Source of the DNA: a virus
Direction: 5' to 3' (one strand)
Virus record (IMG/VR): IMGVR_UViG_3300007516_000010
Coordinates: 417 to 64,416 of that record
DNA length: 64,000 nt
The position numbers were made by a program, and so were the translations under genes. A model generated the notes under the pieces. The model had not been told where the DNA came from, did not search any database, and saw only the letters and a list, made by a program, of their open reading frames with translations. Of this stretch, positions 835 through 62,358 are shown piece by piece (positions within the stretch are counted from its first letter, which is position 1; the number at the start of each line of letters is the position of its first letter).

Positions 835-862
835 GCGGCGACAAAATCGATTTTGTCGCCGC
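835..862. repeat. 28-bp dispersed palindrome, copy 1 (perfect)
   Basis: GCGGCGACAAAATCGATTTTGTCGCCGC, intergenic between the stop at 801 and ATG 889. Confidence 0.97.
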
Positions 863-888
863 TTCTTTCATTAACCACCAGGAAAAAT

Positions 889-2544
889 ATGTCTACGACG
901 CAGACCCGCAAGTTCGGACTTCACCCGCATTTGCTGATGGACGTGATTCAGCGGCAAGCTGGTTCACTCAGCAAGAGCTGCCTCGAAGCGGTGATGAATT
1001 CCGTCGACGCGGGAGCGACTTACTGCCGCCTTACGATCGAGAACAACAAAGTTCTGATTGTCGACGACGGACAAGGCTTTCGCAGCCTGCAGGAAATCGA
1101 ACTGTGGTTCGAGACTTTCGGACAGCCGCACGAAGAGTCGGAAAACAAAACCTATGGCTCGTTCCGTATGGGCCGCGGTCAGCTACTCGCCGCCGGCGTT
1201 AATTGCTGGCGTACCGGCGAGTTCGAGATGATCATCGACATCAAGAAAGACGGGCTGGACTACCAGCTGCACACGGATCAATCGCACCACGCGGGATGCG
1301 TAATCGCGGTCTATCTCTACGACAAGCTGCTTCCGTCGGATCTCAACGAGTGCGTCCGCGAGCTGGAAAACTGGGTCAAGTATTGTCCGATCCCGGTGTT
1401 GATCAACGGGCGGCAGGTGTCCAAAGATCCGGCCACCTGCAAGTGGGATTACATCACGGAGCAGGCGTACGTCAAGCTGCATCCCGGTACCGGCAGTGGG
1501 CTGGCGATTTACAATCTCGGTATCCATGTCATGACTGTGCCTGGCTGGAAGTACGGTGTCGGCGGCGAGGTCGTATCGCGGCAACAAGTTCGCGTGAACT
1601 TTGCCCGCAATGATATTCAGAGCGACTGCCCCGTATGGCGGATCGTGAAAGCAAATATCGACGACCAGGCGGGTAAGGAGCTACCTAAGAAAAAGTCGCT
1701 CAACGACGGCGAACGACAACGCCTGGTCGATCGCTTGCTCGGTAAGTCGACGATGTGGGACGATTTTAGAGAATCGCGGACGATCACAGCGGTAACCGGC
1801 AGGCATTACAAGCCGTGGCAATTGCAAGGGTGTCAGCGGGTTACCGTCGCGGCTAAAGGCAACCGGAAGGGCGACACAATCCACCGCCAGAACTTAGCTT
1901 TCGTGATCGCGGAAGAAACACTGCGAAGGTTCCACGTCGAGGATGCAGGTGAGCTGCTGCGGGTGCTGGACAAGTCTGCTGAAAGCTATCTGTACTCGCG
2001 GCTGACCGTCTTAGACTTCGACGAACTGGCAGCCACGATCAGCGATGAACATGAATTGTTGCTAGAGAAAGACCATAATATAAGGGAGAAGATTTGGCTT
2101 GACATGATAAGCGAAACCCGTTTCTGTTTGTCCGTTAGCGATAGCAAGGCAAGTTACCGCAACTTGTGTATTGGCAAAAGCGGTTCCGCTATTGGATGGA
2201 CTGACGCGAATACATACATCGCGATCAACCGGTCCTACCTAGCCAAGCTAAGTTTCAACGCGACTGACTTTGGAAAACTCGCATCTGTTTTGCTGCACGA
2301 AATGTGTCACTGCGATCCAGACATGGATGAGCACGACCATGGTCAGGAGTTCTACGAAGAGTTCCACGACCACGCGCACAAAATCGCCACCTTCGCAGCG
2401 AAGATGGTGAAATTCGTTCCGTCGGTATTAAAGCGGCACGGACGCAAGATCACTAAAGCCCAGCTGGCCGAGCAGGATCAGCTAGCGAAACTGGAAAAAG
2501 CCCAAGAAGACTTCGCAATCGTAACCTCTGACGAAAGGGATTGA
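889..2544 (+). CDS. GHKL (Hsp90/MORC-like) ATPase fused to a C-terminal HExxH zinc-metallopeptidase-like domain
   Basis: Bergerat-fold motifs LEAVMNSVDAGA, IVDDGQGF, GSFRMGRG; C-terminal LLHEMCH...HDHGQEF; start moved from 805 to ATG 889 (SD-like CAGGA). Confidence 0.8.
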   Translation: MSTTQTRKFGLHPHLLMDVIQRQAGSLSKSCLEAVMNSVDAGATYCRLTIENNKVLIVDDGQGFRSLQEIELWFETFGQPHEESENKTYGSFRMGRGQLLAAGVNCWRTGEFEMIIDIKKDGLDYQLHTDQSHHAGCVIAVYLYDKLLPSDLNECVRELENWVKYCPIPVLINGRQVSKDPATCKWDYITEQAYVKLHPGTGSGLAIYNLGIHVMTVPGWKYGVGGEVVSRQQVRVNFARNDIQSDCPVWRIVKANIDDQAGKELPKKKSLNDGERQRLVDRLLGKSTMWDDFRESRTITAVTGRHYKPWQLQGCQRVTVAAKGNRKGDTIHRQNLAFVIAEETLRRFHVEDAGELLRVLDKSAESYLYSRLTVLDFDELAATISDEHELLLEKDHNIREKIWLDMISETRFCLSVSDSKASYRNLCIGKSGSAIGWTDANTYIAINRSYLAKLSFNATDFGKLASVLLHEMCHCDPDMDEHDHGQEFYEEFHDHAHKIATFAAKMVKFVPSVLKRHGRKITKAQLAEQDQLAKLEKAQEDFAIVTSDERD

Positions 2545-2546
2545 CA

Positions 2547-2858
2547 ATGGAAACGCAAGAAACACCGGTTAGTTTGTCGGTATCGCTGCGAGATGCAGCG
2601 GAGGATCAGCTGTATGTCTCGCCCGTGTGCGTACGCGTATGGCGAGACCATATCACGTTGGACCTGGAGGAGCACGGGTTGAACGAGTTAGAATCAGGCT
2701 GCGGCGAGATCATTTACCTGGAGAGGTACGAAGGCTCGCTTCGGTTGATTGTGTGGGCAGACATTAACGACGCAGATCCGACGCACGTGATCGACCTCAG
2801 CAGCGCCCTAGAGAGCAACCGCCGTGTAGCTACTACGGAGACAACCGCACCATGGTAA
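2547..2858 (+). CDS. hypothetical protein
   Basis: ORF abutting the previous stop, ATG 2547. Confidence 0.65.
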   Translation: METQETPVSLSVSLRDAAEDQLYVSPVCVRVWRDHITLDLEEHGLNELESGCGEIIYLERYEGSLRLIVWADINDADPTHVIDLSSALESNRRVATTETTAPW

Positions 2859-3079
2859 CTAACGAAGACCGGGCCCAGTGGGCGGAGAACGTCATGGAGA
2901 CGTTTGCTGACGAGACCGGAATGGACCAGGAGACGGAGCCGGAGACGATTCTAGCGGACTTGTTGTGCGACTTGATGCACTACGCCGCGACGCTAAGCGA
3001 AGGCATTTTTGAAGCGGCGTTGGCGGACGCGAGAGCACACTACGAGCATGAGGTCGGTGACGGCTGCGGCGACAACTGA
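2852..3079 (+). CDS. small conserved phage-type hypothetical protein
   Basis: 75 aa, NEDRAQWA...DLLCDLMHYA...ARAHYEHE; overlaps the previous stop. Confidence 0.7.
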   Translation: MVTNEDRAQWAENVMETFADETGMDQETEPETILADLLCDLMHYAATLSEGIFEAALADARAHYEHEVGDGCGDN

Positions 3080-3121
3080 GCGTTAACGACTTAACGAACC
3101 AAACTAAAAAAGGACCAGTAA

Positions 3122-3853: not shown

Positions 3854-3915
3854 CAACCGACGATGCGTGTGAATGCGAAGAATGCGAAGAATGCGACAAC
3901 GGGAGCGATCAATGA
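3850..3915 (+). CDS. 21-aa Cys/Glu-rich micropeptide MTTDDACECEECEECDNGSDQ
   Basis: ATGA overlap with the upstream stop and ATGA overlap with the downstream start; contains a GAATGCGAA x3 microrepeat. Confidence 0.45.
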   Translation: MTTDDACECEECEECDNGSDQ

Positions 3916-4385
3916 CAAACGCGGAAAAGACCATGACACCGTCACCTTACGCTGCCCAGTTCAATGAGATAGCGGATCAGATCGAAAAACACCGCGAACG
4001 GTTCGACATGCGGTATTGGCTCGACATACCGTATGAGTTTGCGGACGATTTGTCGCGAGTGGGTTACGAGGCTAGTGAAGATATCCTCGTCGATGAAGGC
4101 TATTGCGGCACCGCTGCTTGTATCGGCGGAACTGCCGAAGCTATCGCGGCAAAGGATGGCAAGTCGCTACAGGAGTATTTGCCGCTTAGCAGTGTCCAGC
4201 GGCTATCGCTTTATTACTCGGATGCCGTATATCCACTGCTTAGCGTGTGGGAAATGTACGCAGCCGAACTAGGCATTACCGAAGAGGCGGTGGCAGATGC
4301 CGAGCTGCTGGCGACAATCGACGCTGAAATGGCCATTACGATGCTGCGAAAGCTAGCCACAGGCGAATGGGTATTCGATGCTTAG
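3912..4385 (+). CDS. hypothetical protein
   Basis: start moved to ATG 3912; contains FDMRYW and CGTAACIGG. Confidence 0.65.
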   Translation: MTNAEKTMTPSPYAAQFNEIADQIEKHRERFDMRYWLDIPYEFADDLSRVGYEASEDILVDEGYCGTAACIGGTAEAIAAKDGKSLQEYLPLSSVQRLSLYYSDAVYPLLSVWEMYAAELGITEEAVADAELLATIDAEMAITMLRKLATGEWVFDA

Positions 4386-4401: not shown

Positions 4402-4429
4402 GCGGCGACAAAATCGATTTTGTCGCCGA
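4402..4429. repeat. 28-bp dispersed palindrome, copy 2 (1 mismatch)
   Basis: GCGGCGACAAAATCGATTTTGTCGCCGA, 16 bp after the stop at 4385. Confidence 0.95.
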
Positions 4430-4464: not shown

Positions 4465-5460
4465 ATGACATTTTCAACTTATTCTACAGCAAGTAAGCCA
4501 CGATCGATTGCGAAACACAACTCGACGACAAAACGAGAACCGTTTACAACGCTAGGACAAACTAACACACCGGTTTCAATCTACGACTTCGCCACGCTTT
4601 GGGGTGACTTGGTCGAGGCTTATCACCGCCAAGGCAGCCGAGAGCGGCTAGACACGGTGGTTCTACCGGCGTTCTGTGTCGACGAGCATACTCAATTGAA
4701 CTCGTTGATGACGCTGGCTGGCGAGTTTGCGAAGCGTTACCGTTGCGAGTTTTGGTTTGATGGCAAGCCGCTACCTGCGTACTTGGACGCTATGAACGGT
4801 AACTACAAGTTTTCGCAGGTCGCGATTACGGTTGTACGACCGGAATTAATGACTGCTGAGCAGAGTATGCCACGTGATGAGCCGAACGCGGCCGATGCGG
4901 CAGAGACGGTAGCCAACCCTGAACCTGCACCCGCGGCGGAGGTGGTAGCGGAGGCCGAACCTGAACCCGCGGCGGAGGTGGTAGCCAACCCTGAACCTGA
5001 ACCCGCGGCGGAGGTGGTAGCGGAGGCCGAACCTGAACCCGCGGCGGAGGTGGTAGCTTTAGCTGAGGAGCTGCCTGTGTCCGAGCCGGCCAAGGCAGTT
5101 AAACCGGGCAAGTCCGCCAAACCGGCCAAACCGGCCAAACCGGCCAAACCTGGCAAACAGTTGAGGCCTAGCTTGGCGGACTTAGATAGAGCTAGGCGAG
5201 AGAAGCGAAAGTACAAAGGCTACCAGGCAACGCCAACGAGCAAGCCGCGGTTCTTCAGTCGTGTTGCCGATGCGGATATGGAGAACCTGTTAGACGCGGT
5301 GATCGCCATCGATAAACTACGTCGTCCACAGTATAAGGAGGTCAAGCTCTCCGCGGATTTATTCGACAAGTTGAAACAGGTGATCATCGAGATGGATGCC
5401 ATCCGTGGTGATTTGCTTGAGGTCATCGTCGCACAGCCATCGCACTTACCGGGAGATTAA
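4465..5460 (+). CDS. hypothetical protein with Ala/Glu/Pro repeats and a KPA basic repeat
   Basis: 331 aa; (VANPEPxPAAEV/VAEAEPEPAAEV) x4 followed by KPAKPAKPAKPGK. Confidence 0.75.
   Translation: MTFSTYSTASKPRSIAKHNSTTKREPFTTLGQTNTPVSIYDFATLWGDLVEAYHRQGSRERLDTVVLPAFCVDEHTQLNSLMTLAGEFAKRYRCEFWFDGKPLPAYLDAMNGNYKFSQVAITVVRPELMTAEQSMPRDEPNAADAAETVANPEPAPAAEVVAEAEPEPAAEVVANPEPEPAAEVVAEAEPEPAAEVVALAEELPVSEPAKAVKPGKSAKPAKPAKPAKPGKQLRPSLADLDRARREKRKYKGYQATPTSKPRFFSRVADADMENLLDAVIAIDKLRRPQYKEVKLSADLFDKLKQVIIEMDAIRGDLLEVIVAQPSHLPGD
4909..5057 (+). repeat. intragenic 36-nt tandem repeat, alternating A-B-A-B units
   Basis: GTAGCCAACCCTGAACCTG(C/A)ACCCGCGGCGGAGGTG alternating with GTAGCGGAGGCCGAACCTGAACCCGCGGCGGAGGTG. 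Confidence 0.9.
5116..5151 (+). repeat. 9-nt tandem repeat (GCCAAACCG x4) encoding AKP
   Basis: read directly from the sequence. Confidence 0.9.
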
Positions 5461-5468
5461 AGGCTAAC

Positions 5469-5862: not shown

Positions 5863-6858
5863 ATGTCACCTACTATTCTACCGCCGGTACCTCCGCCCGA
5901 TCCAGTGGTGTTACCTGATTTTTCTGCGATTATCGGCAGGCAACAGGCCGAGGTTTTTAGTAATTCGTTAGCTAGGGAGACCATTAGAGAAAACAACATT
6001 CGTAATCACCGCGTGGCAGACTTCATGCAGGACAGGGATGCCGACATTGCCGCTCGTTTGCGAAGTTGCCATCGGCTACTACAGCGTAAGGGCGATTATT
6101 ACCAGTCGTCCATGTTTTGCCGGCAGACTCGCTTGTGCGCTAATTGTCACGTGATTCGTAGCCGCTACACCCAGGAGCGATTCAGCGAGGCGGTGGCTGC
6201 GTTCTCTTCCCGGCAAGGGGTAAAAACACGCCTATTATCATTTGTGCTGCATCCAGAGGCGAAGCCTGAGTTATCGCTCTCGGTAGTCGCCGACGTCATA
6301 AGTCGTTTTGGGCAGCGGTTAGAGTGGTACCGAACGCGGCATAACAACAGCGGAGTAACTAAGCGAGAGGTGCTTGGTCCGGTGATGCTGTCGTCACATT
6401 TGCAACCGGCTGCCAAGTTTACTGCTCCTGGCGGCTTTCGGATGTCGCACGGCGACAAGATGCACCTTCACATTTTGCTAGGTGTACATGACCGCGCTGT
6501 TGCTAAAGACATCGCCGCGATGCTAGAGCAGCTGTGGGTGTCCGCACAGTACAGCGATCATCGGCAAATGGATATGAAGCTTAAGCGGGAGAAACTTGAG
6601 CTCGAGGATGCAGAGCATGAGGCCAATTTGATCGCATACCTGGCTAGACACATTAAGCCGGTATGGAATCCGCGACAGGTGATTCAAGCGTACGACCTGG
6701 CTGCGACGTTGTCGCGGTCTTCGCTATGCCGTCTCATGGGTGCATCGGGCGTGGTGCGTAAGTTACCTAGCCGACTACCGTTGATCGGCGAGGCGATACA
6801 GTTTAATTCCGACGGGCTAAATTTCGAGCCTGTCTTCCTTTCACAGTGGACACATTAA
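5863..6858 (+). CDS. rolling-circle Rep_1-like HUH endonuclease
   Basis: N-terminal AARLRSC...FCRQTRLCANC Cys cluster, motif I LSFVLHP, HUH motif II MHLHILL, motif III LIAYLARHIK. Confidence 0.65.
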   Translation: MSPTILPPVPPPDPVVLPDFSAIIGRQQAEVFSNSLARETIRENNIRNHRVADFMQDRDADIAARLRSCHRLLQRKGDYYQSSMFCRQTRLCANCHVIRSRYTQERFSEAVAAFSSRQGVKTRLLSFVLHPEAKPELSLSVVADVISRFGQRLEWYRTRHNNSGVTKREVLGPVMLSSHLQPAAKFTAPGGFRMSHGDKMHLHILLGVHDRAVAKDIAAMLEQLWVSAQYSDHRQMDMKLKREKLELEDAEHEANLIAYLARHIKPVWNPRQVIQAYDLAATLSRSSLCRLMGASGVVRKLPSRLPLIGEAIQFNSDGLNFEPVFLSQWTH

Positions 6859-18043: not shown

Positions 18044-18778
18044 ATGCCGATTTTTGTACGAACCATAAAACTAGTAGAGGACGCGACTATGCCGGCAGAA
18101 ATTCAAAAAACGATGGAAGCCGACGTTAAACCGAAAAAGATCAACGCCAGACACGTCAGGCATCCCCGGTTGACCATTTTAGAGATCGTGGGCGCAACAA
18201 GGTACCTGGAGGCGAATTTCAAGAAGTTCGACGGAATGTCGTTGAAGGAGATACAGGGCGAGCTTGCGGCGTGGCGAAACCGGAGCGGCGACAAAATCGT
18301 TTTTGTCGGCGAGCAGGGTTACAAAGGCGTGTCGCTGGGGACAGCCAAAGAGAGTGCCAACGCGGTCGGGTTAAGCTTCGATAAACCCGAACCGCCACCA
18401 GTGATAGTGGCATCGTTGCTGTCCGGTCTGTCGGAGGTACTACTGCAACTGTGTGTGCTAGTGGACTATTTCGCCGCAAAATCGGTCCCATTACATGGCC
18501 CAATACTTAGAGGCAGTAAGCCTCACAACAAGTTGCAACTGCTGGTGGAGCAGGCAGCGTCGCTAGAAGCTGCCAGTCGTAAGGTGGCTGACGAGCCGCT
18601 TGCGGAAGTGGATGGCCACGATAAAAAAGCCGTAATGGCTGAGTACGCTAATTTATCCGCAGCAACTCATCCACCGCGAGGGCGAGGTCTGGATGAGGAA
18701 CCCCGCAATAAAAGGTCGGTGCGACGGACGTCGTCTCACCCCGGTCAGCCTTCGCTCTTTCCGCCGGTTAGTTCATGA
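18044..18778 (+). CDS. hypothetical protein containing an in-frame palindrome copy
   Basis: 244 aa, SD GAGGAAGG; the segment SGDKIVFVG is encoded by the palindrome. Confidence 0.65.
   Translation: MPIFVRTIKLVEDATMPAEIQKTMEADVKPKKINARHVRHPRLTILEIVGATRYLEANFKKFDGMSLKEIQGELAAWRNRSGDKIVFVGEQGYKGVSLGTAKESANAVGLSFDKPEPPPVIVASLLSGLSEVLLQLCVLVDYFAAKSVPLHGPILRGSKPHNKLQLLVEQAASLEAASRKVADEPLAEVDGHDKKAVMAEYANLSAATHPPRGRGLDEEPRNKRSVRRTSSHPGQPSLFPPVSS
18285..18312. repeat. 28-bp dispersed palindrome, copy 3 (intragenic, 3 mismatches)
   Basis: GCGGCGACAAAATCGTTTTTGTCGGCGA. Confidence 0.85.
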
Positions 18779-22296: not shown

Positions 22297-22304
22297 GGAC
22301 AACG

Positions 22305-23984: not shown

Positions 23985-24016
23985 GGGCGGCGACAAAATC
24001 GTTTTTGTCGCCGCCC
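23985..24016. repeat. 28-bp dispersed palindrome, copy 4 (centre TCGT, arms extended to 14 bp)
   Basis: GGGCGGCGACAAAA-TCGT-TTTTGTCGCCGCCC. Confidence 0.95.
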
Positions 24017-29735: not shown

Positions 29736-29736
29736 A

Positions 29737-30465
29737 ATGCGAGACGCCGCTAAGACCCCTCAAGAATTACATGAACGACTTACTCAGAAGTTTCTGGCGG
29801 CGCGTTGCCGGAACGACTCCAGTGGTAGCATTCATAACCCGCAGGCTGACGTCTCAGTGATGATGGCGTTCATGTTCGAACACATCGAAGCGGCGTTTAA
29901 GCAGAACGCTTGGCCAGAGTTGACAGGTTTCTTGATAGGCAAGTCGGGCGTCGACAAAAACGATTTTGTCGCCGAGCATGTCCGCAACGTGCACTTGCTA
30001 GTGGCGGATTACATCAAGGCCGCCTACGTGCCCACCGAGGAGCAGAAGTTGCACATGACCTTCGAGCAGACGCTTGATTCACTGGGCTGGCATTCACAGC
30101 CGATGGCCGCAAGGGTTGCGTATGTGTACATGCTGGGACTGTTTCATATGTCGCGATGCTGGGTAATCGGTAGGCAGTCCAATGAGCTCGGCATTTCGCC
30201 GGAGAGGGGTTTTGAAGACATTGCCGCAGCGGCCGGTGTGGAACTACGGATGTACGATCAACGGATCAATCCGACAATCGAAGCCCGCAATACATTACGG
30301 GATTCGGTGGTCTACGCACAGCAGCTAGGGATGTCTCGTGATTCGATCATTGCAGAGGTCGACACGACGCTGCGGGATTCTTCGCTGGTGTCGCGTGCGA
30401 TGTCATTGGTTAAAACAGCCGCATCGCGGCTGTATGACCGCGTGAATCCTCCTACGAAAGATTAG
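29737..30465 (+). CDS. hypothetical protein containing an in-frame palindrome copy
   Basis: ATG 29737 one base after the previous stop; GVDKNDFVAE is encoded by the palindrome. Confidence 0.65.
   Translation: MRDAAKTPQELHERLTQKFLAARCRNDSSGSIHNPQADVSVMMAFMFEHIEAAFKQNAWPELTGFLIGKSGVDKNDFVAEHVRNVHLLVADYIKAAYVPTEEQKLHMTFEQTLDSLGWHSQPMAARVAYVYMLGLFHMSRCWVIGRQSNELGISPERGFEDIAAAAGVELRMYDQRINPTIEARNTLRDSVVYAQQLGMSRDSIIAEVDTTLRDSSLVSRAMSLVKTAASRLYDRVNPPTKD
29948..29975. repeat. 28-bp dispersed palindrome, copy 5 (intragenic, 3 mismatches, centre ACGA)
   Basis: GCGTCGACAAAAACGATTTTGTCGCCGA; the centre is the reverse complement of the TCGT variant. Confidence 0.8.
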
Positions 30466-36140: not shown

Positions 36141-36141
36141 C

Positions 36142-38190: not shown

Positions 38191-38218
38191 GCGGCGACAA
38201 AATCGATTTTGTCGCCGC
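38191..38218. repeat. 28-bp dispersed palindrome, copy 6 (perfect)
   Basis: 11 bp after the tRNA-like RNA and 30 bp before a wHTH gene. Confidence 0.97.
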
Positions 38219-43783: not shown

Positions 43784-43811
43784 GCGGCGACAAAATCGAT
43801 TTTGTCGCCGC
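43784..43811. repeat. 28-bp dispersed palindrome, copy 7 (perfect)
   Basis: 5 bp after the stop at 43778, upstream of rIIB. Confidence 0.97.
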
Positions 43812-43829
43812 ATCCACCTAACCCTTTGA

Positions 43830-44786
43830 ATGAGGATTTCGATGAGTATTATTTACGCGATAGCTAATGACGGCGGTATTTCCGCCTACGTCAACGGCCA
43901 GATGAAGGTGGTCGCTCCTGACCACCCCAAGTATGAAGACATCTTGCTGGCGTTGGACAAGCAGGATTCCGACAAGTTTTTGAGGTTGGCCGACGTCAGC
44001 AGCGCGGTTAATGATTACCTCAGCCCCAGCGGCAAGTTGGCCGTCAAGAATGGCCAGGTGCTTTATCAAGGTGTTTCGATCGAGTTTGCGTTCACGACGC
44101 GGCTACTGGAAATGATGGCCAAGTCATTGCCGTATCTGCCTTATGTCCGCTACATCGAGCGAACGATGCGTAACCCGCGGCCACGCTGCGTCGCATCGCT
44201 GGATTTGCTAATCAACCGGGCGGATGCGAAGTATCCGTTACCGCTGCTTCCTGACGGACGGTTCCTGGCATACAAGCGAGTCCGTCCGGATTACCTGGAC
44301 CATTACGGCGCTACGGTGCTCTACGAGCCGCTGGAGGTTAAGTACAAGGATCACCCTTTGGTGGGTGATTTAAACTGGCTGCATGCACAGGAAGGAAACC
44401 GCGTCGGGATGCCGATCTGGGAAACAGACGACAACTTCCAGCTAGCTTGCTCGGCGGGATTCCACGCTGGCTTGTACGAGTACGTCGAGACGTTTCACAA
44501 GGACGACGGCCCGATACTAGCCGTGGCGATTTGCCCCAGCCAGGTGATCTCAGTTCCACAGGACGCCAGTGCGTTTAAGTTTCGCACACACGCACTGGAA
44601 GTGCGGCACATCGTCCCGGAGACGTTCTTGGACTTGATCTTTGATCCGACTGGCTCGCTTAAAGCGGCCAGGGCTAATTCGACGTTCTATAACGACGCTT
44701 GGTCCTGCGAAGAAAGTGAGTTCGAGTACTCAGAATTTGGCGACGACGACGACGACGAACACGACGACGACTGGTCGCAGATCTAG
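43830..44786 (+). CDS. rIIB: rIIB-like protein
   Basis: DHPKY, GQVLYQG, LPDGRFLAYKRV, CSAGFHAG, VISVPQD...KFR; acidic tail. Confidence 0.78.
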   Translation: MRISMSIIYAIANDGGISAYVNGQMKVVAPDHPKYEDILLALDKQDSDKFLRLADVSSAVNDYLSPSGKLAVKNGQVLYQGVSIEFAFTTRLLEMMAKSLPYLPYVRYIERTMRNPRPRCVASLDLLINRADAKYPLPLLPDGRFLAYKRVRPDYLDHYGATVLYEPLEVKYKDHPLVGDLNWLHAQEGNRVGMPIWETDDNFQLACSAGFHAGLYEYVETFHKDDGPILAVAICPSQVISVPQDASAFKFRTHALEVRHIVPETFLDLIFDPTGSLKAARANSTFYNDAWSCEESEFEYSEFGDDDDDEHDDDWSQI

Positions 44787-44810
44787 TCGTTATTTTCGGC
44801 TGTAACACCA

Positions 44811-44851
44811 AAGGGCACCCAGGAGCCGTTCCGGGTGCCCTTGTTTCATTT
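44811..44851 (+). terminator. stem-loop, probable terminator
   Basis: AAGGGCACCC/GGGTGCCCTT followed by GTTTCATTT. Confidence 0.65.
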
Positions 44852-44909
44852 CTGGCGGAATTGTTTCAGCAATTCCACCAGCGTTTCATTAAACCATCAG
44901 GACCGATCC

Positions 44910-48382: not shown

Positions 48383-48772
48383 ATGACATTCTTAAAGGGT
48401 TCCACCGGTCTTTGGCTTCCCGGCTCGGCGGACAGTAACTGTACGGAAGCCAGAGGGGTGAGTTTCTACGCGGAGAACGGCATGGTGTGCATGCGTAAGG
48501 AGCTGCCAGACGGTAAAGAGGAGTTTAAGCAGTTGGCCCCCAGCGAGGCCAGGATACGCATGCAGGCGCTCGTAGAGGTTGCCAAGCGATCAAGCGACGT
48601 CCACGGGCCGAACCATTCCCAGTCTAAGTTTTACGAAAACTTTATCGACGGGTATAAACGAGCCATCGTTGCGGCAGAAGAGCAGGGTCCGTATGAGGAT
48701 CCCAGCAGTCGTCGAGACCGCGTCAACCGCCGTCCGAAGTCGTTCGCGATGCCCTCTAAAAGCCTGGAATGA
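48383..48772 (+). CDS. hypothetical protein
   Basis: 129 aa, starts immediately after the previous stop. Confidence 0.65.
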   Translation: MTFLKGSTGLWLPGSADSNCTEARGVSFYAENGMVCMRKELPDGKEEFKQLAPSEARIRMQALVEVAKRSSDVHGPNHSQSKFYENFIDGYKRAIVAAEEQGPYEDPSSRRDRVNRRPKSFAMPSKSLE

Positions 48773-49317
48773 TCATGTCCACTGCCGAACAACGCGCTAA
48801 GCTCGCCGCCGATATGCTGGGAACCCTAGTTGATGCGGGGTTGAGTAGGCAGGAAATGATTAGCATGCTGTCGTTCTCCGCTGACGTCCTGGAGAAGCAG
48901 GCATCGCAAGGAAAGACGCTTGACACCATGGAGTTGGACAAACAGTCAGGTTTGTTTGGTGCATTGGCCGGAGCGTTGCCGATAGATGCGATCAAGGATA
49001 TCGCTCTTCGCGGGGCGGACAAGGTGTTTGGGCTTGGCGAGCGTGTAGTAGGCAGTGCGTTGGATACGACCATGAAGTATTCGCCACTGATTGCGGGAGC
49101 TGCGTTGGCGACTCCGGTGATCGCAGGTTACGCCGCAGGTCATGGGATAGGTACTGGCAGCGACAACGGCGATGAGATGGTTCGATCGATTCACCAGCGA
49201 GAATTGGTTTCGATGCTGCGGGAGAACGCGAGGCTAGCTGAGCAGACTCGCTTGGTTGAGGAGCAGCGACAGAAGCAGTTGGCAGGTAAAAAGCGACCAC
49301 GCCGTTTCGCTGGCTAA
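48769..49317 (+). CDS. probable virion protein (K-x-[AS] motifs)
   Basis: RAKLAA, LEKQAS, LDKQSG; hydrophobic Gly/Ala helix. Confidence 0.65.
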   Translation: MIMSTAEQRAKLAADMLGTLVDAGLSRQEMISMLSFSADVLEKQASQGKTLDTMELDKQSGLFGALAGALPIDAIKDIALRGADKVFGLGERVVGSALDTTMKYSPLIAGAALATPVIAGYAAGHGIGTGSDNGDEMVRSIHQRELVSMLRENARLAEQTRLVEEQRQKQLAGKKRPRRFAG

Positions 49318-49323: not shown

Positions 49324-49351
49324 TCGCCGACAAAATCGATTTTGTCGGCGT
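49324..49351. repeat. 28-bp dispersed palindrome, copy 8 (compensatory G-C to C-G swap)
   Basis: core CGCCGACAAAATCGATTTTGTCGGCG (49325-49350) is still a perfect palindrome. Confidence 0.92.
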
Positions 49352-50638: not shown

Positions 50639-53600
50639 ATGCTGCAGCCGCCCGTATCTCCTGGTTCGGCGGCTCAGCCAGCCGCGATTTCTCCTATCAA
50701 ACCACGCTCGCCGCTGATGCCATTGGCGGACTCTCCCGGCGAAGAAATGCCAGTGGGCGTTAAGCTGCGAGCGACAGACGATCCAGACGCTTTACGTACC
50801 GGCGTTTACGACTCGGTGCTGGCAGCGGCTAGCTCGATGCCTCCAGCAGTGAGTAACACGCACACGCTCAAGCTGACGGATCTGCATTACGCTGAGGATG
50901 ATCCTGAGTTCAACGCCACCGACGAGAAGAAGGCGATTCTTTCTGGCAGTAGTCTGAGTCGTCGGTTACGAGGCACGTGGCGGTTGTTTGACAACGGCAC
51001 AGGTGGCGAGATCGCTGAGCGTAAAGCGACTGTTGCTAACGTCCCGGCGATTCTGCGAGACGGCTCGTTTCTTCGCGGCGGAACGCGGTACACGATGGGT
51101 GTGCAGCAACGGTTGCGTCCAGGTGCGTATGCTCGCTACCGCAAAAATGGGGAGGCCGAATTGCACGTTAACGCCCGCCAGGGCACCGGGCGTAGTCACC
51201 GTTACGTGCTGGAGCCCGAGACAGGGCACTTCTCTGTGCATGTTGAAGGGGCGAAGATTCCGCTCGTGCCGCTGTTAACTTCGCTGGGCGTTACCCGTGA
51301 CCAGATGGAGAGTGCTTGGGGCAAGGAGCTGACGGACAAGAACTTCGCAAAGCAGGATCCTAAAGCGATCGGTAAATTCTATGACCGCTTTGTCCCTAAG
51401 TCGCAGCAGAACGCAGAGGACCGGTCGAATCCTGAGATGGTTCAGGCGAAGATTCGCGAAGCGTTTGAAAAGATCGAGCTGGATGACGAGGTCGTTGGTC
51501 ACACACTTGGCAGGGCCACGGGCAAGGTAGACGCTGACAATATTCTGCGGGGCACGACCAAGACGCTGCGGATGTTGCAAGGGCAAGAAGATGCCGACGA
51601 CCGAGACAACCTGGCGTTTGCCAGCTACCACGGGGCACCCGAGATATTCGCTGAACGGTTCATTAAAGATTACGGACGGTTCCGCAAGGAACTGCTTTAC
51701 AAGGCGTCACGTAAAGGCACGCTGGACAACGTCCCTTCAGGGGCTTTGGACAAGTACATCAACGCGGCAATTTTCCGTAGCGGACTTGCGCAAGGGTCCG
51801 AAGAAATAAATCCGTTCGAAATTCTCGCCGCTGGAACCAAGGTTACGCGGTTCGGCGAGGGTGGTCTTCCTGACACACTGTCGGCACCTGATGAGTCACG
51901 AGAAGTAAGCCCGAGTCAGTTCGGATTCATTGACGCGGTGGTATCACCGGAGACTCTCCGCATCGGCATTGACGGTTTCTTGGCTCGTGACACGTTCATC
52001 GGTGACGACAACCGGCTGTACAGCAAACTGCTGGACAGCAAGACCGGCAAGACGGTGCTACGGAGCCCCAATCAGTTGCTCAACAGCACCACTGCGATTG
52101 GAGCCTCACCGATCCCTGGCTGGGAGCTAGCGATGCAAAAGGGTAAGTTGCGGATGGTGAAGGAAGGCACCGCCGAATACCGCATCCCCAGCATGGAAGA
52201 CACGTTCGGTCAGTTAGCCAGTTTCACCCCGATGAAATCTGGCATGTTTGGTCAGCGAACTTCAATGGCGAGTCGTATGGCGGCACAGGCTTTGGCTATC
52301 GATAACGCCGAGGCTCCGCTGGTGCAGACGGGCGTACCGGGTGATGCGGATGAGTCGTTCGAGGAGCGACTGGGTGTACGCCTGGGTGCGATCCGCGCCG
52401 AAGAGCGAGGCCGTGTTCTGGAGGTTTCGCCTGACCACATCTTGGTGCGTTACGCCCACGGCAAAGACAAGAAGTTCAGCCTGGACAACAATCGGCCTGG
52501 AGCCCGCAAGAGCGTGTTCCATCACGACCCGATGGTTTCCGTCGGCCAGGAAGTCGAACCCAATCAGATGCTCGCTAAGAGTAACTACGTTGATGACAAA
52601 GGCACAGCGGCACTGGGCACCAACGCCCGTACGGCATTGATGGCGTGGGACGACGCGTTCGAGGACGGCATCGTAGTTTCGCAGTCGTTCGCTGACCGCG
52701 TGCGGGTACAGCAGGCGTACAAGCACCGTATTCAGCCTGGCGAAGGCGAGAAGGTAGATAAGAAGTCGTACCTGCAGGTGTTCGGCAACCGGTACACAGG
52801 CGACCAGCTCAAGGCGATCGACAACGACGGTGTGATTCGCATCGGTACCACAGTCAAGAGCGGCGATCCGTTGATCCTGGGCGTCCGCAAGCGTGACGGA
52901 GCCAAGACCCGTGTGCATCGGCAGAGCAAGATGGACTTTGGTGACTCCAGTATCCGCTGGGATCACCATAGTGAAGGCGTCGTCACCGACGTGTTCCATA
53001 GCGAGAAAGGTTCGCAGGTTGTTGTCAGGTCGTCTAAATCCCTGGAAGAGGGCGATAAGCTTTGCTACGACGAGCTGACTGAAGTGTTGACCCGCACAGG
53101 TTGGAAGCTCGTCGCGGATCTCCGGTTTGACGATGAGATTTGCTGTCGGAGCGAGGATGGCGGCATCCGCTACGACAAGCCGACCAAGCTTTATCAATAC
53201 GCGACTGGCGGACGGATGTACCGGATAGAGTCGCAACAGATCGACCTGTTCGTTACTGCGTCGCACAACATGTTTGTGCAGCGACGTAATGGTAAAGCAT
53301 TCGAGTTGTTGCCTACGACGGCTATCGCAGGCAAGCGTGTTCGATACGCCAAGTCAGGTAGCTGGGCAGGCAAGAGTCCGGAGTATTTTGAATTCCCTGC
53401 GATGCGAGTAAAGGCAGGGCAGTCTGGTCGCGGGTCACGAGACTTACCGGCGATCCGCTGGCCGTTACGCACGTACCTGATGCTGTTAGGGGTGTACCTG
53501 GCTGACGGCAACTGTTCCAAGCAAGTAAAGAAAGGGAACTGGTTCGTTGACATCACGAAGATCAAAGAGCCAAACCGCACGCAGCTACGGGAGGCATTAA

Positions 53601-56176
53601 CCGCGGCTGGCATTAAGTTCCATGAAGCCGCCGGTGGTACCAAAGTTCGTATCCAGAGCAAGCAGCTGTACCAGCACTTCCAGCAATTTGGCCGGGCATG
53701 GGAAAAGTTTATCCCTGCCGAAGTGTTCGATTACGCCAGGGAAGACCTGGAGTATCTGTTCCAGTGGCTGATGTGGGGCGACGGGCACGCCGGCGATAAG
53801 TGGCCGATCAGCTACTCATCGACGTCTAAACAGCTGGCAGATGATGTCAGTCGCTTGCTGCTCCACATCGGCAAGGCAGGCAACGTCAGCTTTAAAGATC
53901 CGGAAGACTGCGTGATCCGTGGCAAGCAGTACAAATGTCGTCGATGTTATTCCGTGGGAATCATCAACACCAAGCTGACGCCGCAGGTAAATCACTCGCA
54001 CGTCAAGAAGCAATCCGCACAGACGGAAGAGTACATCGACGGCTACGACAAGCCAGTGTTCTGCGTGGAAGTCCCGACGCACGTGCTGTATGTCCGCCGC
54101 AACGGAAAGGCCTGTTGGTCTGGTAACTCTGGGCGTCAGGGAAACAAGGGCGTGATCACGGTCAAGCCCGACGAAGAGATGCCACAGGGTGAAGACGGTA
54201 AAGCGATCGAGGTAATCTTTAGTCCGCTGTCAGTACCCAGCCGCGGTAACAGCTCGTTCCCACTGGAGATGTTGCTCGGCAAGATCGCTCGCAAACGAGG
54301 CCAGGCGTACAAGATCAAGGACTTCAAAGGCGAAGACTTGCAGCAGATGGTTCTCAATGAAGCCGACAAGTACGGCGTCAGCGACACCGAGACCTTCATC
54401 GATCCTGCGACGGGTAGAAAGATCAAGGGCGTGTTGTCAGGCGACATGTTCTTGATGGCTCTTCACCACACGGCCGAATCGAAACAGAGTTCTCGCGGGC
54501 TGGGGAAATATTCCGCAGAAGATTCCCCCGCAAAGGGCGGAGAAGAGGGTGCCCAAGCGAAGAGATTCAGTGGCCAGCAGCTTTGGGCTGGGCTATCTCA
54601 CGGAGCTTATGCCACGTCCAAGGAAGCGTCACTGCTGCGTGGAACCCGCAATGACGATTACTGGTCGGCGTTCATGGCCGGCAATCAGGTCGCTCCTCCG
54701 AAGGTTCCTGTCCAGTACAACGCGTTCATGGACAGGCTCCGCGCATCGGGCATCAATCCGGTCCGCAGGGGCACCCAGACGCAACTGATGGCGATGACGG
54801 ACAACGACGTCCGAGACATCGCTGGAGACCGCGTCGTACGCGTTAACGACACGGTAGAAGTCCACAAGGACATGAAGCCCGTGCCGGGCGGTCTGTTCGA
54901 TCCGCGACTATTCGGCGATGGGACTCGCTTCGCAGCGATCGAGTTACCCGAGCGGATGCCCAACCCTGTCTTCGAGGAGCCACTGCGGCGACTGCTGGGT
55001 TACACCGAGAAGGATTTCAGGGAAGTGCTGGGGGGTAAAAAAGAGATACCTGGTTTCGGCAGCGGTCCTGACGCGTTGTTCAAACGCCTGGAGCAGATCG
55101 ACGTTCCCAAGGAACTTTCCCGTGCTCGTAACGAGATCGCTGGCACTCGTAAGGTAGCTCGCGACGCAGCGGTCCGGCGGCTGGGGTATCTGAAGAACTT
55201 CGAGAAGACCGGTACGCATCCGACGGATCTGATGATCTCGATGGTTCCGGTGATGCCACCGCGGCTGCGTCCGATCTCCAAGCTTGGCGGCAAGGGCGGC
55301 GTCGTGATCAGCGATCCCAACTTTCTGTACCGCGAGTTGATGCAGGCCAATGATGTGGTCAGCGAGCTCAAAGGTAAGGTCGACGACATCTCCGACGAAC
55401 GGCTGGCGGTTTACGATGCTCACAAGGCACTCGTTGGTGTCACCGACTCGACCAACCGCGAGTTACAGCAGCGGAAGGTCAAAGGGATCATCAAGCGTCT
55501 TGTGGGGAGCAACCCCAAAAGCGGAGACATGCAGAGGAAGCTGCTCAGTGGCAACGTCGATACGGTCGGCCGCGGCGTGATCATGCCTGACACGTCGCTG
55601 GACATGGACAGCTTCGGTTTACCCGAGGCGATGGCGTTCAACATGTTTGAACCCTACGTCGCGAGAAACCTGTCGCTTAAGGGGATTCCCCGTATACAGG
55701 CGATGGAGCACCTTAAGGCCAGGGACAGTGTTGCCCGTAAGGCATTGCTGGAAGAGATAGGCAAACGACCGGTGTCGCTTAGCCGTGCACCGATTCTCTA
55801 CAAGTATGGCGACATCGCTTTGTTGCCGCAGTTGGTTAAGGGAGACACGATCAAGCTCAATCCGTTCGTGGTCAAGGGCCTCGGCGCCGATTACGATGGA
55901 GACGCTGTCAACCTTAACGTCATGCACGGACGCGAAGCGGTAGCTGAAGCGATGGACAGGATGTTGCCCAGCCGCATGCTGTTCGCCACCAAGGACTTTA
56001 AGAGTCCGATGTTCACACCCAGCCAAGACATGCTGCTGGGACTCAACAGGGCTTCCCAGCCAGCAAAGAAGGGAGCCAAGACCCGTTACTTCGCTTCCTT
56101 TGAAGATGCCAAATCGGCACTGAAGCGAGGTGACATCGACCTTGACACACCTGTTCGGTTTCCGAAGACACCGTGA
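50639..56176 (+). CDS. rpoBC: single-chain multisubunit-type RNA polymerase: beta fused to the N-terminal/catalytic part of beta-prime; contains an intein
   Basis: beta motifs RTSMASRMAAQA, MAWDDAFEDGIVVS, GDKL|SGRQGNKGV, SPLSVPSRG, KRFSGQQLWA; beta-prime motifs GLFDPRLFG, VPVMPPRLRP, LLSGNVDTVGRGVI, LSRAPILY, catalytic GADYDGD, SQDMLLGL. Confidence 0.92.
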   Translation: MLQPPVSPGSAAQPAAISPIKPRSPLMPLADSPGEEMPVGVKLRATDDPDALRTGVYDSVLAAASSMPPAVSNTHTLKLTDLHYAEDDPEFNATDEKKAILSGSSLSRRLRGTWRLFDNGTGGEIAERKATVANVPAILRDGSFLRGGTRYTMGVQQRLRPGAYARYRKNGEAELHVNARQGTGRSHRYVLEPETGHFSVHVEGAKIPLVPLLTSLGVTRDQMESAWGKELTDKNFAKQDPKAIGKFYDRFVPKSQQNAEDRSNPEMVQAKIREAFEKIELDDEVVGHTLGRATGKVDADNILRGTTKTLRMLQGQEDADDRDNLAFASYHGAPEIFAERFIKDYGRFRKELLYKASRKGTLDNVPSGALDKYINAAIFRSGLAQGSEEINPFEILAAGTKVTRFGEGGLPDTLSAPDESREVSPSQFGFIDAVVSPETLRIGIDGFLARDTFIGDDNRLYSKLLDSKTGKTVLRSPNQLLNSTTAIGASPIPGWELAMQKGKLRMVKEGTAEYRIPSMEDTFGQLASFTPMKSGMFGQRTSMASRMAAQALAIDNAEAPLVQTGVPGDADESFEERLGVRLGAIRAEERGRVLEVSPDHILVRYAHGKDKKFSLDNNRPGARKSVFHHDPMVSVGQEVEPNQMLAKSNYVDDKGTAALGTNARTALMAWDDAFEDGIVVSQSFADRVRVQQAYKHRIQPGEGEKVDKKSYLQVFGNRYTGDQLKAIDNDGVIRIGTTVKSGDPLILGVRKRDGAKTRVHRQSKMDFGDSSIRWDHHSEGVVTDVFHSEKGSQVVVRSSKSLEEGDKLCYDELTEVLTRTGWKLVADLRFDDEICCRSEDGGIRYDKPTKLYQYATGGRMYRIESQQIDLFVTASHNMFVQRRNGKAFELLPTTAIAGKRVRYAKSGSWAGKSPEYFEFPAMRVKAGQSGRGSRDLPAIRWPLRTYLMLLGVYLADGNCSKQVKKGNWFVDITKIKEPNRTQLREALTAAGIKFHEAAGGTKVRIQSKQLYQHFQQFGRAWEKFIPAEVFDYAREDLEYLFQWLMWGDGHAGDKWPISYSSTSKQLADDVSRLLLHIGKAGNVSFKDPEDCVIRGKQYKCRRCYSVGIINTKLTPQVNHSHVKKQSAQTEEYIDGYDKPVFCVEVPTHVLYVRRNGKACWSGNSGRQGNKGVITVKPDEEMPQGEDGKAIEVIFSPLSVPSRGNSSFPLEMLLGKIARKRGQAYKIKDFKGEDLQQMVLNEADKYGVSDTETFIDPATGRKIKGVLSGDMFLMALHHTAESKQSSRGLGKYSAEDSPAKGGEEGAQAKRFSGQQLWAGLSHGAYATSKEASLLRGTRNDDYWSAFMAGNQVAPPKVPVQYNAFMDRLRASGINPVRRGTQTQLMAMTDNDVRDIAGDRVVRVNDTVEVHKDMKPVPGGLFDPRLFGDGTRFAAIELPERMPNPVFEEPLRRLLGYTEKDFREVLGGKKEIPGFGSGPDALFKRLEQIDVPKELSRARNEIAGTRKVARDAAVRRLGYLKNFEKTGTHPTDLMISMVPVMPPRLRPISKLGGKGGVVISDPNFLYRELMQANDVVSELKGKVDDISDERLAVYDAHKALVGVTDSTNRELQQRKVKGIIKRLVGSNPKSGDMQRKLLSGNVDTVGRGVIMPDTSLDMDSFGLPEAMAFNMFEPYVARNLSLKGIPRIQAMEHLKARDSVARKALLEEIGKRPVSLSRAPILYKYGDIALLPQLVKGDTIKLNPFVVKGLGADYDGDAVNLNVMHGREAVAEAMDRMLPSRMLFATKDFKSPMFTPSQDMLLGLNRASQPAKKGAKTRYFASFEDAKSALKRGDIDLDTPVRFPKTP
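53063..54127 (+). mobile_element. 355-aa intein with LAGLIDADG homing endonuclease
   Basis: N-terminal CYDELTEVLTRTGW, block B VTASHNMFV, LLGVYLADG and LMWGDG, C-terminal VFCVEVPTHVLYVRRNGKACWSGN followed by Ser; removal restores GDKLSGRQGNKG. Confidence 0.92.
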
Positions 56177-56209
56177 GCCTAGTTTAGGCAAGCAGGTTTC
56201 GACCACCAC

Positions 56210-56242
56210 AACAGCCAGGTAATTACCTGGCTGTTTTCGTTT
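56210..56242 (+). terminator. intrinsic terminator after the RNAP gene
   Basis: AACAGCCAGGT-AATT-ACCTGGCTGTT followed by TTCGTTT. Confidence 0.8.
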
Positions 56243-56268
56243 ACACACACACACGAGAAGATCAAAAG

Positions 56269-58550: not shown

Positions 58551-58582
58551 CAGCGGCGACAAAATCGATTTTGTCGCCGCTG
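58551..58582. repeat. 28-bp dispersed palindrome, copy 9 (perfect, extended to 32 bp)
   Basis: CAGCGGCGACAAAATCGATTTTGTCGCCGCTG. Confidence 0.97.
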
Positions 58583-61239: not shown

Positions 61240-61263
61240 CGCGGTACTGCCTACTTTATTTCG

Positions 61264-61300
61264 ACGAGCGGCGGGTATTACTCGCCGCTCGTTTCATTTC
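61264..61300 (+). terminator. intrinsic terminator
   Basis: ACGAGCGGCG/CGCCGCTCGT followed by TTCATTTC. Confidence 0.7.
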
Positions 61301-61347
61301 AGCTAGCCGCTCCATCCAGGTAGACTCCGTGCTTTCGACGACCTAAC

Positions 61348-61614
61348 TTGGAAAAACAGATGCCGCCAACCCGTCTACTCGCCGCGTTCATCCTCATGTT
61401 CTTCGTCACCGTTTTGGCTGTGACGGGTTACGCAGAATACATGCTTAAGCTGGAGCTAAAGCTATTTGGGCCTGACGAACGGCTGGGAGTCTTCGGTATT
61501 CCCTACACGCCGTTTTGGTGGGATACTCTCTGGATCTGTATCGCCGCGGCAGTAGTGGTTTACTGGATGTCGGTGGCTTATCAACTGAAAAAAGCGATCA
61601 ATCATGGTGATTGA
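61348..61614 (+). CDS. small membrane protein (2 predicted TM helices)
   Basis: hydrophobic stretches LLAAFILMFFVTVLAV and LWICIAAAVVVYWM. Confidence 0.6.
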   Translation: MEKQMPPTRLLAAFILMFFVTVLAVTGYAEYMLKLELKLFGPDERLGVFGIPYTPFWWDTLWICIAAAVVVYWMSVAYQLKKAINHGD

Positions 61615-61703
61615 CTTATTTAACTTCTCGGCGTCTGGTCTATTCACGCCGGTTCGTCCACTTTCGACCGACCACTAACACACTACTTGAACGGAGCCTC
61701 TCA

Positions 61704-62324
61704 GTGAGCACAAACGAAAATGTCTTGGTCATTCCCTCGGAGCACATCCCTGGGCTATCCAGCTTGTCTGGTTTCGACGGCAACGTCGATTTGGCCGTTC
61801 GCCCGGTACTGGAATCTTCCGCACTACGGTTCATGCCTCGCTCGGAAGCAGAGACCAACGAGAACTTTAAGCAGATTATCCCTTACGTGATGATCCGCTA
61901 TTTCAACGAGCACCTGGCGGCCCGTTATTACACTTATGTCCGTGGGAACGCCCAGGGTGAGGCTAGGCTGCACGCAAAGGTAAGTTTTGGTGTCGGAGGC
62001 CACATCAACGATCAGGACTCACAGGACCCATTTAAGGCGTTCCTGCCGGGTACTATCCGGGAGATCAAAGAGGAGGTCACGATGCAGACGGATGTGGTCT
62101 TCTCGCCTGAAGTGGTCGGCGCCGTCTACGATCCGACCACGTCGGTGGGCCGGGTTCACTACGGCATCGTGATGGTGTTGCATGCTTCGCATGAGTCAGC
62201 GGTAAAGAACAACGACGCATCCGCCGAGAACATCCGCTGGCAAAGCGTTGTCGAACTGCGTCAGAACACCAATTTGGAAGCCTGGTCGAGGCTGTGCTTG
62301 TCCGGTCTGCACCCACCGAAGTAG
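61704..62324 (+). CDS. NUDIX hydrolase (predicted phosphoesterase type)
   Basis: ENVLV, SEAETNENFKQIIPY, SFGVGGHIN, REIKEEV, GRVHYG, LEAWS; start moved to GTG 61704 (SD CGGAG). Confidence 0.82.
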   Translation: MSTNENVLVIPSEHIPGLSSLSGFDGNVDLAVRPVLESSALRFMPRSEAETNENFKQIIPYVMIRYFNEHLAARYYTYVRGNAQGEARLHAKVSFGVGGHINDQDSQDPFKAFLPGTIREIKEEVTMQTDVVFSPEVVGAVYDPTTSVGRVHYGIVMVLHASHESAVKNNDASAENIRWQSVVELRQNTNLEAWSRLCLSGLHPPK

Positions 62325-62330
62325 CTAACT

Positions 62331-62358
62331 GCAGCGACAAAATCGATTTTGTCGCCGC
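62331..62358. repeat. 28-bp dispersed palindrome, copy 10 (1 mismatch)
   Basis: GCAGCGACAAAATCGATTTTGTCGCCGC, 6 bp after the stop at 62324. Confidence 0.95.

Follow-up and report, generated by a model that had tools for sequence, protein, structure and literature searches.

Phages phiKZ and 201phi2-1 transcribe with RNA polymerases (RNAPs) of their own (PMC10914365, PMC11512511); 61 terminators have been mapped in phiKZ, with one conserved hairpin motif and TTAT (PMC10914365), and a similar terminator motif A was described in 201phi2-1 (PMC11512511). Here we describe a 28-nt palindrome that occurs in ten copies in a window of 64,000 nt, the whole stretch analysed, which comprises bases 417-64416 of a 96,941-bp IMG/VR contig (IMGVR_UViG_3300007516_000010, completeness rated at about 49%) of an uncultured jumbo phage from freshwater metagenomes. 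The palindrome is a real, lineage-specific cis-acting signal of the phage and is read by some phage factor, for which either its RNA or its DNA form may be the active one.

Several other repeated signals are relevant for comparison. Phage T7 has about ten intercistronic RNase III sites in a co-directional genome, which are hairpins just past stop codons and a few tens of nucleotides before the next start. Their stems, which differ in sequence from site to site, are longer and imperfect and contain an internal loop; processing leaves a hairpin that protects the 3' end, and the next gene needs no promoter. The KorB OB operators of IncP plasmids are found genome-wide in tens of copies in short intergenic gaps. 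The virion RNAP promoters of phage N4 exist in three copies before early genes, with a 5-7-bp stem and a 3-nt loop, and are used in a strand-specific manner by a T7-like single-subunit enzyme. In Cluster O mycobacteriophages, the 17-bp palindrome TGTTCGG-N3-CCGAACA is present in more than 30 invariant copies; its function is unknown, its authors suggest that a dimeric protein binds it, and insertions and deletions arise when copies recombine with each other (PMC4351075). The stoperators of Cluster A are asymmetric 13-mers, read by a monomer in an orientation-dependent manner (PMC9283540, PMC6550527), and the elements termed PeSLs in T4-like phages combine a terminator stem-loop with a sigma-70 early promoter (PMC2839356, PMC4122927).

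Copies of the palindrome and their setting

The palindrome reads GCGGCGACAAAA-TCGA-TTTTGTCGCCGC and has the potential to form a 12-bp stem with a 4-nt loop. Nine copies were found in the window at 3 or fewer mismatches (all those of Table 1 except 49324), where 100 shuffles gave an expectation of 0. The tenth, with four changes, was recovered via an 18-nt core, a search that returned 10 copies against 0.14 expected. Four copies are perfect (835, 38191, 43784, 58553), three have one change (4402, 23987, 62331) and three have 3-4 changes (18285, 29948, 49324). The gaps between them are 3567, 13883, 5702, 5961, 8243, 5593, 5540, 9229 and 3778 bp, four of the nine being 5.5-6.0 kb. In the whole contig there are 17 copies, i.e. 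seven beyond the window, with a typical interval of about 5.7 kb, and their spacing is more even than random (coefficient of variation 0.53 vs 0.95, P = 0.003).

All of the approximately 89 genes of the contig are on the + strand, and 15 of the 17 copies are intergenic, between co-oriented genes (binomial P ~1e-9). The copies are spread across replication and structural modules, their flanks are mutually unrelated, and neither target-site duplications nor terminal repeats were found around them. For the eight intergenic copies of the window, the distance to the upstream stop is 33, 16, 17, 159, 5, 6, 56 and 6 nt, and it is 4-17 nt for 9 of the 15 intergenic copies of the contig. The next start follows at anything from 18 to about 100 nt. 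As this gap is often only 18-41 nt, there is no room for a promoter of the sigma-70 type, and transcription must largely continue past the palindrome or be processed.

These results agree with the original prediction, made from the letters of the window, which had listed the same ten copies in the same quality classes, with four of nine gaps at 5.5-6.0 kb and eight copies intergenic between co-oriented genes (18285 and 29948 alone are within open reading frames, ORFs). The wider scan and the spacing test that it had proposed are, for this contig, those of the 17 copies above. It had also noted unrelated flanks, no obvious target duplication and no transposase; the RAYT/Y1 HUH transposase domain (Y1_Tnp, PF01797) is indeed absent from the 96.9-kb contig, and the flank comparison showed no duplication.

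The motif had further been taken as phage-specific, as opposed to a REP-like element abundant in the host. In 185,579 prokaryotic species genomes (596 Gb), the 20-nt core gave 8 single-copy matches, about the chance number, and no genome contained it in multiple copies; one match, also at chance level, was found in IMG/VR. A host REP/BIME element was excluded on the basis of these chance-level single matches and the lack of a RAYT in the ~49% of the genome available.

Table 1. Positions of the palindrome copies in the window, the terminator following copy 10, and the palindromes of other contigs (dG in kcal/mol)
Feature	Position or locus	Strand	Description
Copy 1	835..862	+	Perfect; stop of ORF 553-801 33 nt before, ATG 889 26 nt after; T-rich tail; dG -20.9, z -7.0; counterpart in L017
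Copy 2	4402..4429	+	One change, C28A; stop of 3873-4385 16 nt before, start 4465 35 nt after
Copy 3	18285..18312	+	Three changes; within ORF 18044-18778; 20-nt core intact, outer stem mismatched
Copy 4	23987..24014	+	Loop TCGT; stop of 22260-23969 17 nt before, start 24056 41 nt after; dG -28.4
Copy 5	29948..29975	+	Three changes; in frame within ORF 29710-30465; same place in 69%-identical orthologue
Copy 6	38191..38218	+	Perfect; 3' of large gene 36052-38031, 30 nt before 38249; counterpart L014 1789-1811
Copy 7	43784..43811	+	Perfect; 5 nt past stop of 43527-43778; left border of rIIB-rIIA cassette
Copy 8	49324..49351	+	Four changes including paired swap G4C/C25G; 6 nt past stop of 48769-49317; counterparts in L014 (8673) and L015 (4528)
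Copy 9	58553..58580	+	Perfect; stem extended to 14 bp; T-rich tail; 30 nt before 58611; dG -24.7
Copy 10	62331..62358	+	One change, G3A; 6 nt past stop of 61611-62324
Canonical terminator	62389-62424	+	11-bp GC-rich stem (stem-loop 62389-62415) and TTTTTCGTT; 30 nt after copy 10
Same motif, Ga0209702_10001895 (38 kb)	L101, L160		6 copies
Same motif, Ga0105050_10006613	L104		3 copies
Same motif, other contigs	L117, L118, L119, L161, L171		1-2 copies each
Relatives, RNAP 61-70% identical	L014, L015/L016, L017		CC[CG]A[GA]AAACGTTT[TC]T[CG]GG; 0-10 nt past stops
Relative, RNAP 53% identical	L204		GCC[GC][GA]GGCACGTGCC[CT][CG]GGC; six copies
Relatives, RNAP 42-47% identical	More distant lineages		ATTAACGTTAAT or GTGGAGACGTCTCCAC

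The palindrome in other phage contigs

When metagenomes were scanned, the identical 28-mer turned up in several more freshwater contigs, in some of them in multiple copies (Table 1). These contigs have almost no DNA alignable with ours and one detectable shared protein, at 62% identity. A copy is situated 3' of this shared gene in both genomes (genome 91736 and L160), 10 and 13 nt past the stop, and two paired swaps distinguish one copy from the other. Copies of the same motif on the other contigs are 2-16 nt past a stop. Two copies at L160 336-412 (Ga0209702_10001895) are in tandem, 45 nt apart, and this is the only tandem pair seen. In a syntenic relative, L206, with about 71% nucleotide identity, copies are located exactly at the sites of window copies 4 and 5; the counterpart of copy 4 has two compensatory swaps (G1-C28 to C-G, G4-C25 to C-G), and the loop of both is ACGT. 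Over the 30 unique copies, positions 5-12 and their partners are invariant, as is the central CG, and the outer letters of the loop are A or T only (TCGA 23, TCGT 5, ACGA 1, ACGT 1). This invariant 20-bp core is held across phages with a surrounding identity of only 62-72%.

The contig encodes a single-chain fused beta-beta' RNAP with a LAGLIDADG intein (ORF 50639-56176; Pfam domains RNA_pol_Rpb2_6 and Rpb1). Phages with a related fused RNAP have different palindromes, each of them perfect and CG-centred (Table 1), and four motif lineages were found: TCGA, A5CGT5, GAAACGTTTC and GGCACGTGCC. The centre is self-complementary (TCGA or ACGT) in every lineage. A search of IMG/VR for the AAACGTTT-type motif gave chance single matches only. 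When the genomes were compared gene by gene, the window copy at 38191, after gene 36052-38031, was found to correspond to L014 1789, the one at 49324, after 48769-49317, to L014 8673 and L015 4528, and the one at 835, before 889-2544, to L017 8006. Sites are thus kept at three or more orthologous junctions, at least, while their sequence turned over in concert in each lineage. Such concerted change at kept sites requires either a co-evolving trans-acting reader or homogenisation among the copies. The conservation in relatives on which the original prediction had made its case depend was therefore found as lineage-specific versions at orthologous junctions (L014, L015, L017), in addition to L206.

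Homogenisation leads to one alternative, in which the palindrome is a reader-less, self-propagating or recombinogenic repeat, kept uniform by gene conversion or quasi-palindrome correction, that serves as a junction for gene shuffling in the manner of the PeSLs or is a passenger like REP or miniature transposable (MITE) elements. Copies do occur at the borders of variable cassettes. One slot (window 43784-47405; L204 3769-6682; L014 6422-6778) contains rIIB-rIIA in the window, L203 and L205, a helix-turn-helix (HTH) protein and a tyrosine integrase in L204, and almost nothing in L014; rIIB-rIIA begins 18 nt after copy 43784, and in L015 (4528-7273) five unrelated genes come directly after the palindrome. 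The site after the RNAP gene was gained or lost, with a palindrome in L014, L015 and L017 and none in the window or L202. Identical motifs in contigs with hardly anything else in common, and the PeSL precedent (PMC2839356, PMC4122927), point in the same direction. We nevertheless regard this explanation as improbable: there are no target-site duplications, terminal repeats or transposase, orthologous junctions retain copies across lineages despite the sequence turnover, the even spacing and the conserved in-gene copy argue for selection, and no sigma-70 promoter is attached, unlike in PeSLs. In the window, a small 5-bp hairpin, GCCTAGTTTAGGC, is found after the RNAP stop (56177-56210), before a canonical terminator, and it may be a decayed or replaced copy of the palindrome.

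Terminator, promoter, RNA hairpin or duplex site

Canonical terminators form a separate class in the contig. Several end in TTTT(T)CGTTT, and the same tail is found in relatives. Terminators with TTTT(T)CGTTT(A/C) are located at window 33484-33515, 56212-56243 and 62389-62424, genome 76645, L014 16042-16075, L017 6843-6875 and L202 ~5200-5235; the CGTTT(A/C) that regularly follows the U-run may contribute to a signal for the gene downstream. In all five cases in which a palindrome and a terminator are neighbours, the palindrome comes first, 10-31 nt upstream (window 62331, genome 66845 with its terminator at 66883, L014 16016, L017 6809 and L017 8006), which places the palindrome in the 3' untranslated region of the upstream cistron. 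The separate terminator that had been noticed after copy 10 is one of them (Table 1).

The original prediction had also stated that the palindrome does not look like an ordinary intrinsic terminator, and this is borne out. U-rich tails are present at only 3 of the 30 copies (window 835 and 58553, genome 73452), which are the ones picked up by terminator scans, and the other 27 have 5 or fewer T in the 10 nt after the stem; the mean is 2.7. It is extremely unlikely that the copies are factor-independent terminators for the host RNAP that share a sequence. The GC-rich base, the stable stems, the location just past stops and the three T-tailed copies would suit such terminators, but eight A-U pairs adjoin the loop at the stem apex, the distinct canonical class sometimes follows immediately downstream, and the sequence invariance would not be explained.

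The leading idea of the original prediction was that the palindrome, as a hairpin or cruciform, is a promoter for an RNAP encoded by the phage, by analogy with N4; such an RNAP might be packaged in the virion. The phage does encode an RNAP, and in Salmonella phage Arash the homologous enzyme, 28% identical, ranks first in abundance among the proteins detected in virions (PMC10585845). The copy number, the length and the concerted change per lineage resemble promoter sets of the T7 type, the 18-100 nt that precede the next start could accommodate a 5' untranslated region, and in intergenic DNA we found no other convincing promoter-like motif and no other strongly over-represented one. A motif T[AT]A(A)C[CAT] (TTAACC, TAAACC, TTTAC) is present 7-12 nt downstream of 11 of the 30 copies, compared with 12% of random 30-mers (for example, window 835, 4402, 43784 and 58553, genome 73452 and L101), and similar letters follow canonical terminators; it could be a mini-promoter, an initiator or part of a stop signal. 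On the other hand, promoter-like sites are not enriched at the copies (6 vs 9.6 expected), a perfect palindrome is directionless, yet all 89 genes point one way, and a location ahead of the neighbouring terminator, seen in 5 of 5 cases, would be pointless for a promoter. The position follows the upstream stop and not the downstream start, copies exist within ORFs and are spread over modules instead of standing before a few early genes, and both the 12-bp stem with 4-nt loop and the fused beta-beta' RNAP of multisubunit type differ from N4. We therefore consider a promoter very unlikely. The proximity to stop codons, the variable distance to starts, the order before terminators and the few U-tails argue against both a promoter and a plain host-type terminator. 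Of the three functions proposed at the outset, the RNA processing or stabilising stem and the operator or genome-organising site of a dimeric protein still lead, and the N4-like promoter has fallen behind.

Our tentative preference is a sense-strand RNA hairpin that would punctuate polycistronic transcripts, by attenuation, processing or 3' protection, and would be read by a co-evolving phage factor. It is supported by the placement just past stop codons, the order before terminators, the short gaps to the next start, the precedent of phiKZ and 201phi2-1, and a downstream flank of asymmetric composition, in which C makes up 34% and G 18% and pyrimidines occupy 72% of positions +4 to +8. Pairing supports it as well. 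The window copies are computed to fold stably, with dG from -17 to -28 kcal/mol and z down to -7.5. In L204, the three longest of the six copies gain 3 pairs of differing sequence (TCT/AGA, TAT/ATA, GTT/AAC), in which 9 of 9 positions are complementary (~4e-6 by chance), and two L204 copies have symmetric internal swaps; in L015, the two copies have differing outer stems that are paired in both. The paired swaps between orthologous copies (23987 and L206, genome 91736 and L160) point the same way. Within the inner stem of the AAACGTTT lineage, the sense-strand wobbles are G.U in 4 cases and A.C in 0, and G.U is found in all three L014 copies. Pairing across lineages, which holds in 88% of cells compared with 64% in shuffles and 42-55% in slid controls, is strong but was not counted as proof of a hairpin; it weighs little here because the symmetric half-sites of a dimer would co-vary alike.

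Several observations speak against an RNA hairpin. Over the whole stem, G.U (10) and A.C (7) do not differ significantly. The outer positions 1 and 4 are often unpaired in this lineage (about 13 of 32 copies; the position 4/25 pair is GC in 20, GG in 5, CG in 2 and CC in 2), and an invariant 20-nt core with unpaired outer positions fits protein recognition as well as a hairpin. A self-complementary centre in every lineage is not needed by an RNA loop. Two copies within ORFs, one of them conserved at the nucleotide level, are awkward for a terminator or a cleavage site, and the even spacing suggests a requirement along the DNA. Finally, the available 49% of the genome yielded no RNase III, no sigma factor and no other candidate for the reader.

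The conserved in-gene copy is copy 5; it falls in a linker that varies within an otherwise conserved protein. The 69%-identical orthologue of this protein retains all 20 core nucleotides; the three differences are all at variable positions of the motif and all change an amino acid, the third-codon positions of the core are all unchanged, and distant homologues have an unrelated linker at this place. Since the core is kept although the peptide is not conserved in distant homologues, selection acts on the nucleotides, even within a gene. The ORF that holds copy 3 (18044-18778) has no homologues and is an ORFan.

The strongest rival, possible but somewhat unlikely, is a duplex DNA site for a symmetric dimeric phage protein, either a global regulator or roadblock similar to stoperators or KorB, or an organiser or compaction protein similar to MatP, Noc or SlmA, with a 20-bp core and about 35 evenly spaced sites per genome. 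It accounts better than the RNA hairpin for the core, which is invariant in at least 30 copies across phages 62-72% identical around it, for the exact two-fold symmetry through a universal central CG in every lineage, for in-gene copies that preserve exactly the core, and for the even spacing. Lineage-wise concerted change at orthologous sites is the co-evolution expected with DNA-binding specificity, a U-tract is lacking and a separate terminator class is present, and integrases exist in relatives. There are precedents in the Cluster O palindromes (PMC4351075) and in the co-evolution of Cluster A repressors and stoperators (PMC6550527). It accounts less well for the complementarity added past the shared sequence and the symmetric within-genome variants (L204, L015), which are not expected of it, and it leaves unexplained why copies keep close to the upstream stop and always precede a neighbouring terminator. 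The asymmetries that are consistent in orientation (loop TCGT 5 vs ACGA 1, and the G.U of the L014 copies) also count against a duplex site, and no ParB_N, HTH_3, HTH_17 or integrase domain was found in the 97 kb available.

If the palindrome acts as an RNA hairpin, it would be transcribed on the sense strand just past the stop codon, and the transcript would fold into a 12-14-bp stem with a WCGW loop at about -20 kcal/mol. A phage factor, perhaps the fused beta-beta' RNAP or a partner RNA-binding or nuclease protein, would recognise the 20 invariant nucleotides at the apex, and the mRNA of the upstream cistron would be partly terminated, cleaved or 3'-protected. The specificity of the reader would shift between lineages. 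Here we infer RNA as the acting form, 3'-end formation as the outcome, and the identity of the reader. A more specific version, which we consider doubtful, is that the palindrome and the minimal fused RNAP (or a small partner) are a co-evolving, lineage-private pair of signal and reader, a hairpin stop or processing code in which canonical terminators would stop one polymerase, of phage or host, and palindromes the other, throughout a large clade of ~200-kb freshwater and soil phages.

The phage, its relatives and known systems

Besides the RNAP, the window encodes a family A DNA polymerase, helicases, SbcCD and rIIA/rIIB. Most ORFs of the contig have no family assignment, and PHROG and Pfam annotation of the genes flanking the copies gave no informative assignment. 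In the contig (~49% of the genome), RNase III and sigma-70 r2 domains are absent in addition to those named above. An Rfam scan of the window gave no match, and no tRNA or tmRNA was found; a tRNA-like RNA suspected earlier at 38040-38179, upstream of copy 6, had no ARAGORN call and no Rfam match at the gathering threshold. Similarly, ORF 5863-6858, once thought to be an HUH rolling-circle Rep, had no Pfam match at E <= 0.01, and a link between it and the hairpins is unsupported. A sequence search of runs found the phage in three freshwater DNA metagenome runs and in no RNA run.

INPHARED contains no close cultured relative, and no phage there has a DNA polymerase or RNAP with more than 30% identity. 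Among cultured phages, the RNAP best matches those of Vibrio phages D69, D148 and D181 and of Salmonella phage Arash (about 28% identity). The RNAP family comprises 399 related IMG/VR contigs, many of them ~200 kb, with homologues from ~1,450 aa (intein-free) to more than 3,000 aa (several inteins). Two relatives with 53-57% identical RNAPs, L203 (788-1924, - strand) and L204 (4390-6171), encode tyrosine integrases, accompanied in L204 by an HTH_17 protein, so that some members of the clade may be temperate.

Dispersed invariant palindromes in phage genomes are already known. What is new is their occurrence in an uncultured clade of jumbo phages whose RNAP is fused and minimal, the conservation of sites with concerted turnover of their sequence, and the conserved apical core with variable paired bases. 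Fused-RNAP phages are abundant, none of the close ones is cultured, and the organisation of their transcription is unstudied. A private signal, conserved far better than the proteins, gives a handle on units of transcription or organisation and a bait for its reader. It is also a sequence tag that joins contigs of one lineage in metagenomes, and it has already joined contigs whose DNA can hardly be aligned. Should it turn out to be a polymerase-specific code for stopping or processing, it would give a new instance of a phage keeping its own transcription apart from that of the host; if it is a DNA site, a jumbo-phage case would be added to the unexplained class of dispersed phage palindromes.

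When compared with known systems, the palindrome would share with the N4 promoters a hairpin-forming DNA signal specific to a phage-encoded, virion-associated polymerase, but copy number, position before early genes, geometry, strand-specific recognition and polymerase class are all unmatched. PeSLs are likewise repeated intergenic stem-loops that border variable cassettes in large myovirus genomes; here only the bare palindrome is conserved, with unrelated flanks and no promoter consensus. Stoperators and KorB operators also consist of tens of copies of one site in short intergenic gaps, with site and reader co-evolving per lineage, whereas hairpin-type covariation is seen only here and no repressor or ParB/KorB homologue was found in the contig. 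The Cluster O palindrome is similar as a dispersed invariant inverted repeat, both intergenic and in ORFs, absent from the host and at similar positions in relatives. It differs in being shorter, with a 3-nt variable spacer and one third of its copies in ORFs, and it occurs in temperate-type siphoviruses without an RNAP of their own, with no stop-side preference reported.

The nearest textbook analogue would be the T7 RNase III hairpins, which are also intercistronic and near stops in a co-directional genome, although a stem of 12 bp is short for E. coli RNase III and the available half of the genome has no RNase III gene. The nearest documented behaviour appears to be the conserved terminator set of phiKZ and 201phi2-1. 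The sequences are unrelated, and our palindrome is perfect including the loop, has no fixed TTAT and only a weak T[AT]A(A)C[CAT] in about one third of the copies; the RNAP is a single fused chain, copies also exist in ORFs, and termination, mapped in phiKZ, is a prediction here. In both cases, a jumbo phage with its own multisubunit-type RNAP reuses one hairpin dozens of times at gene ends, without a long U-tract and with conservation between relatives.

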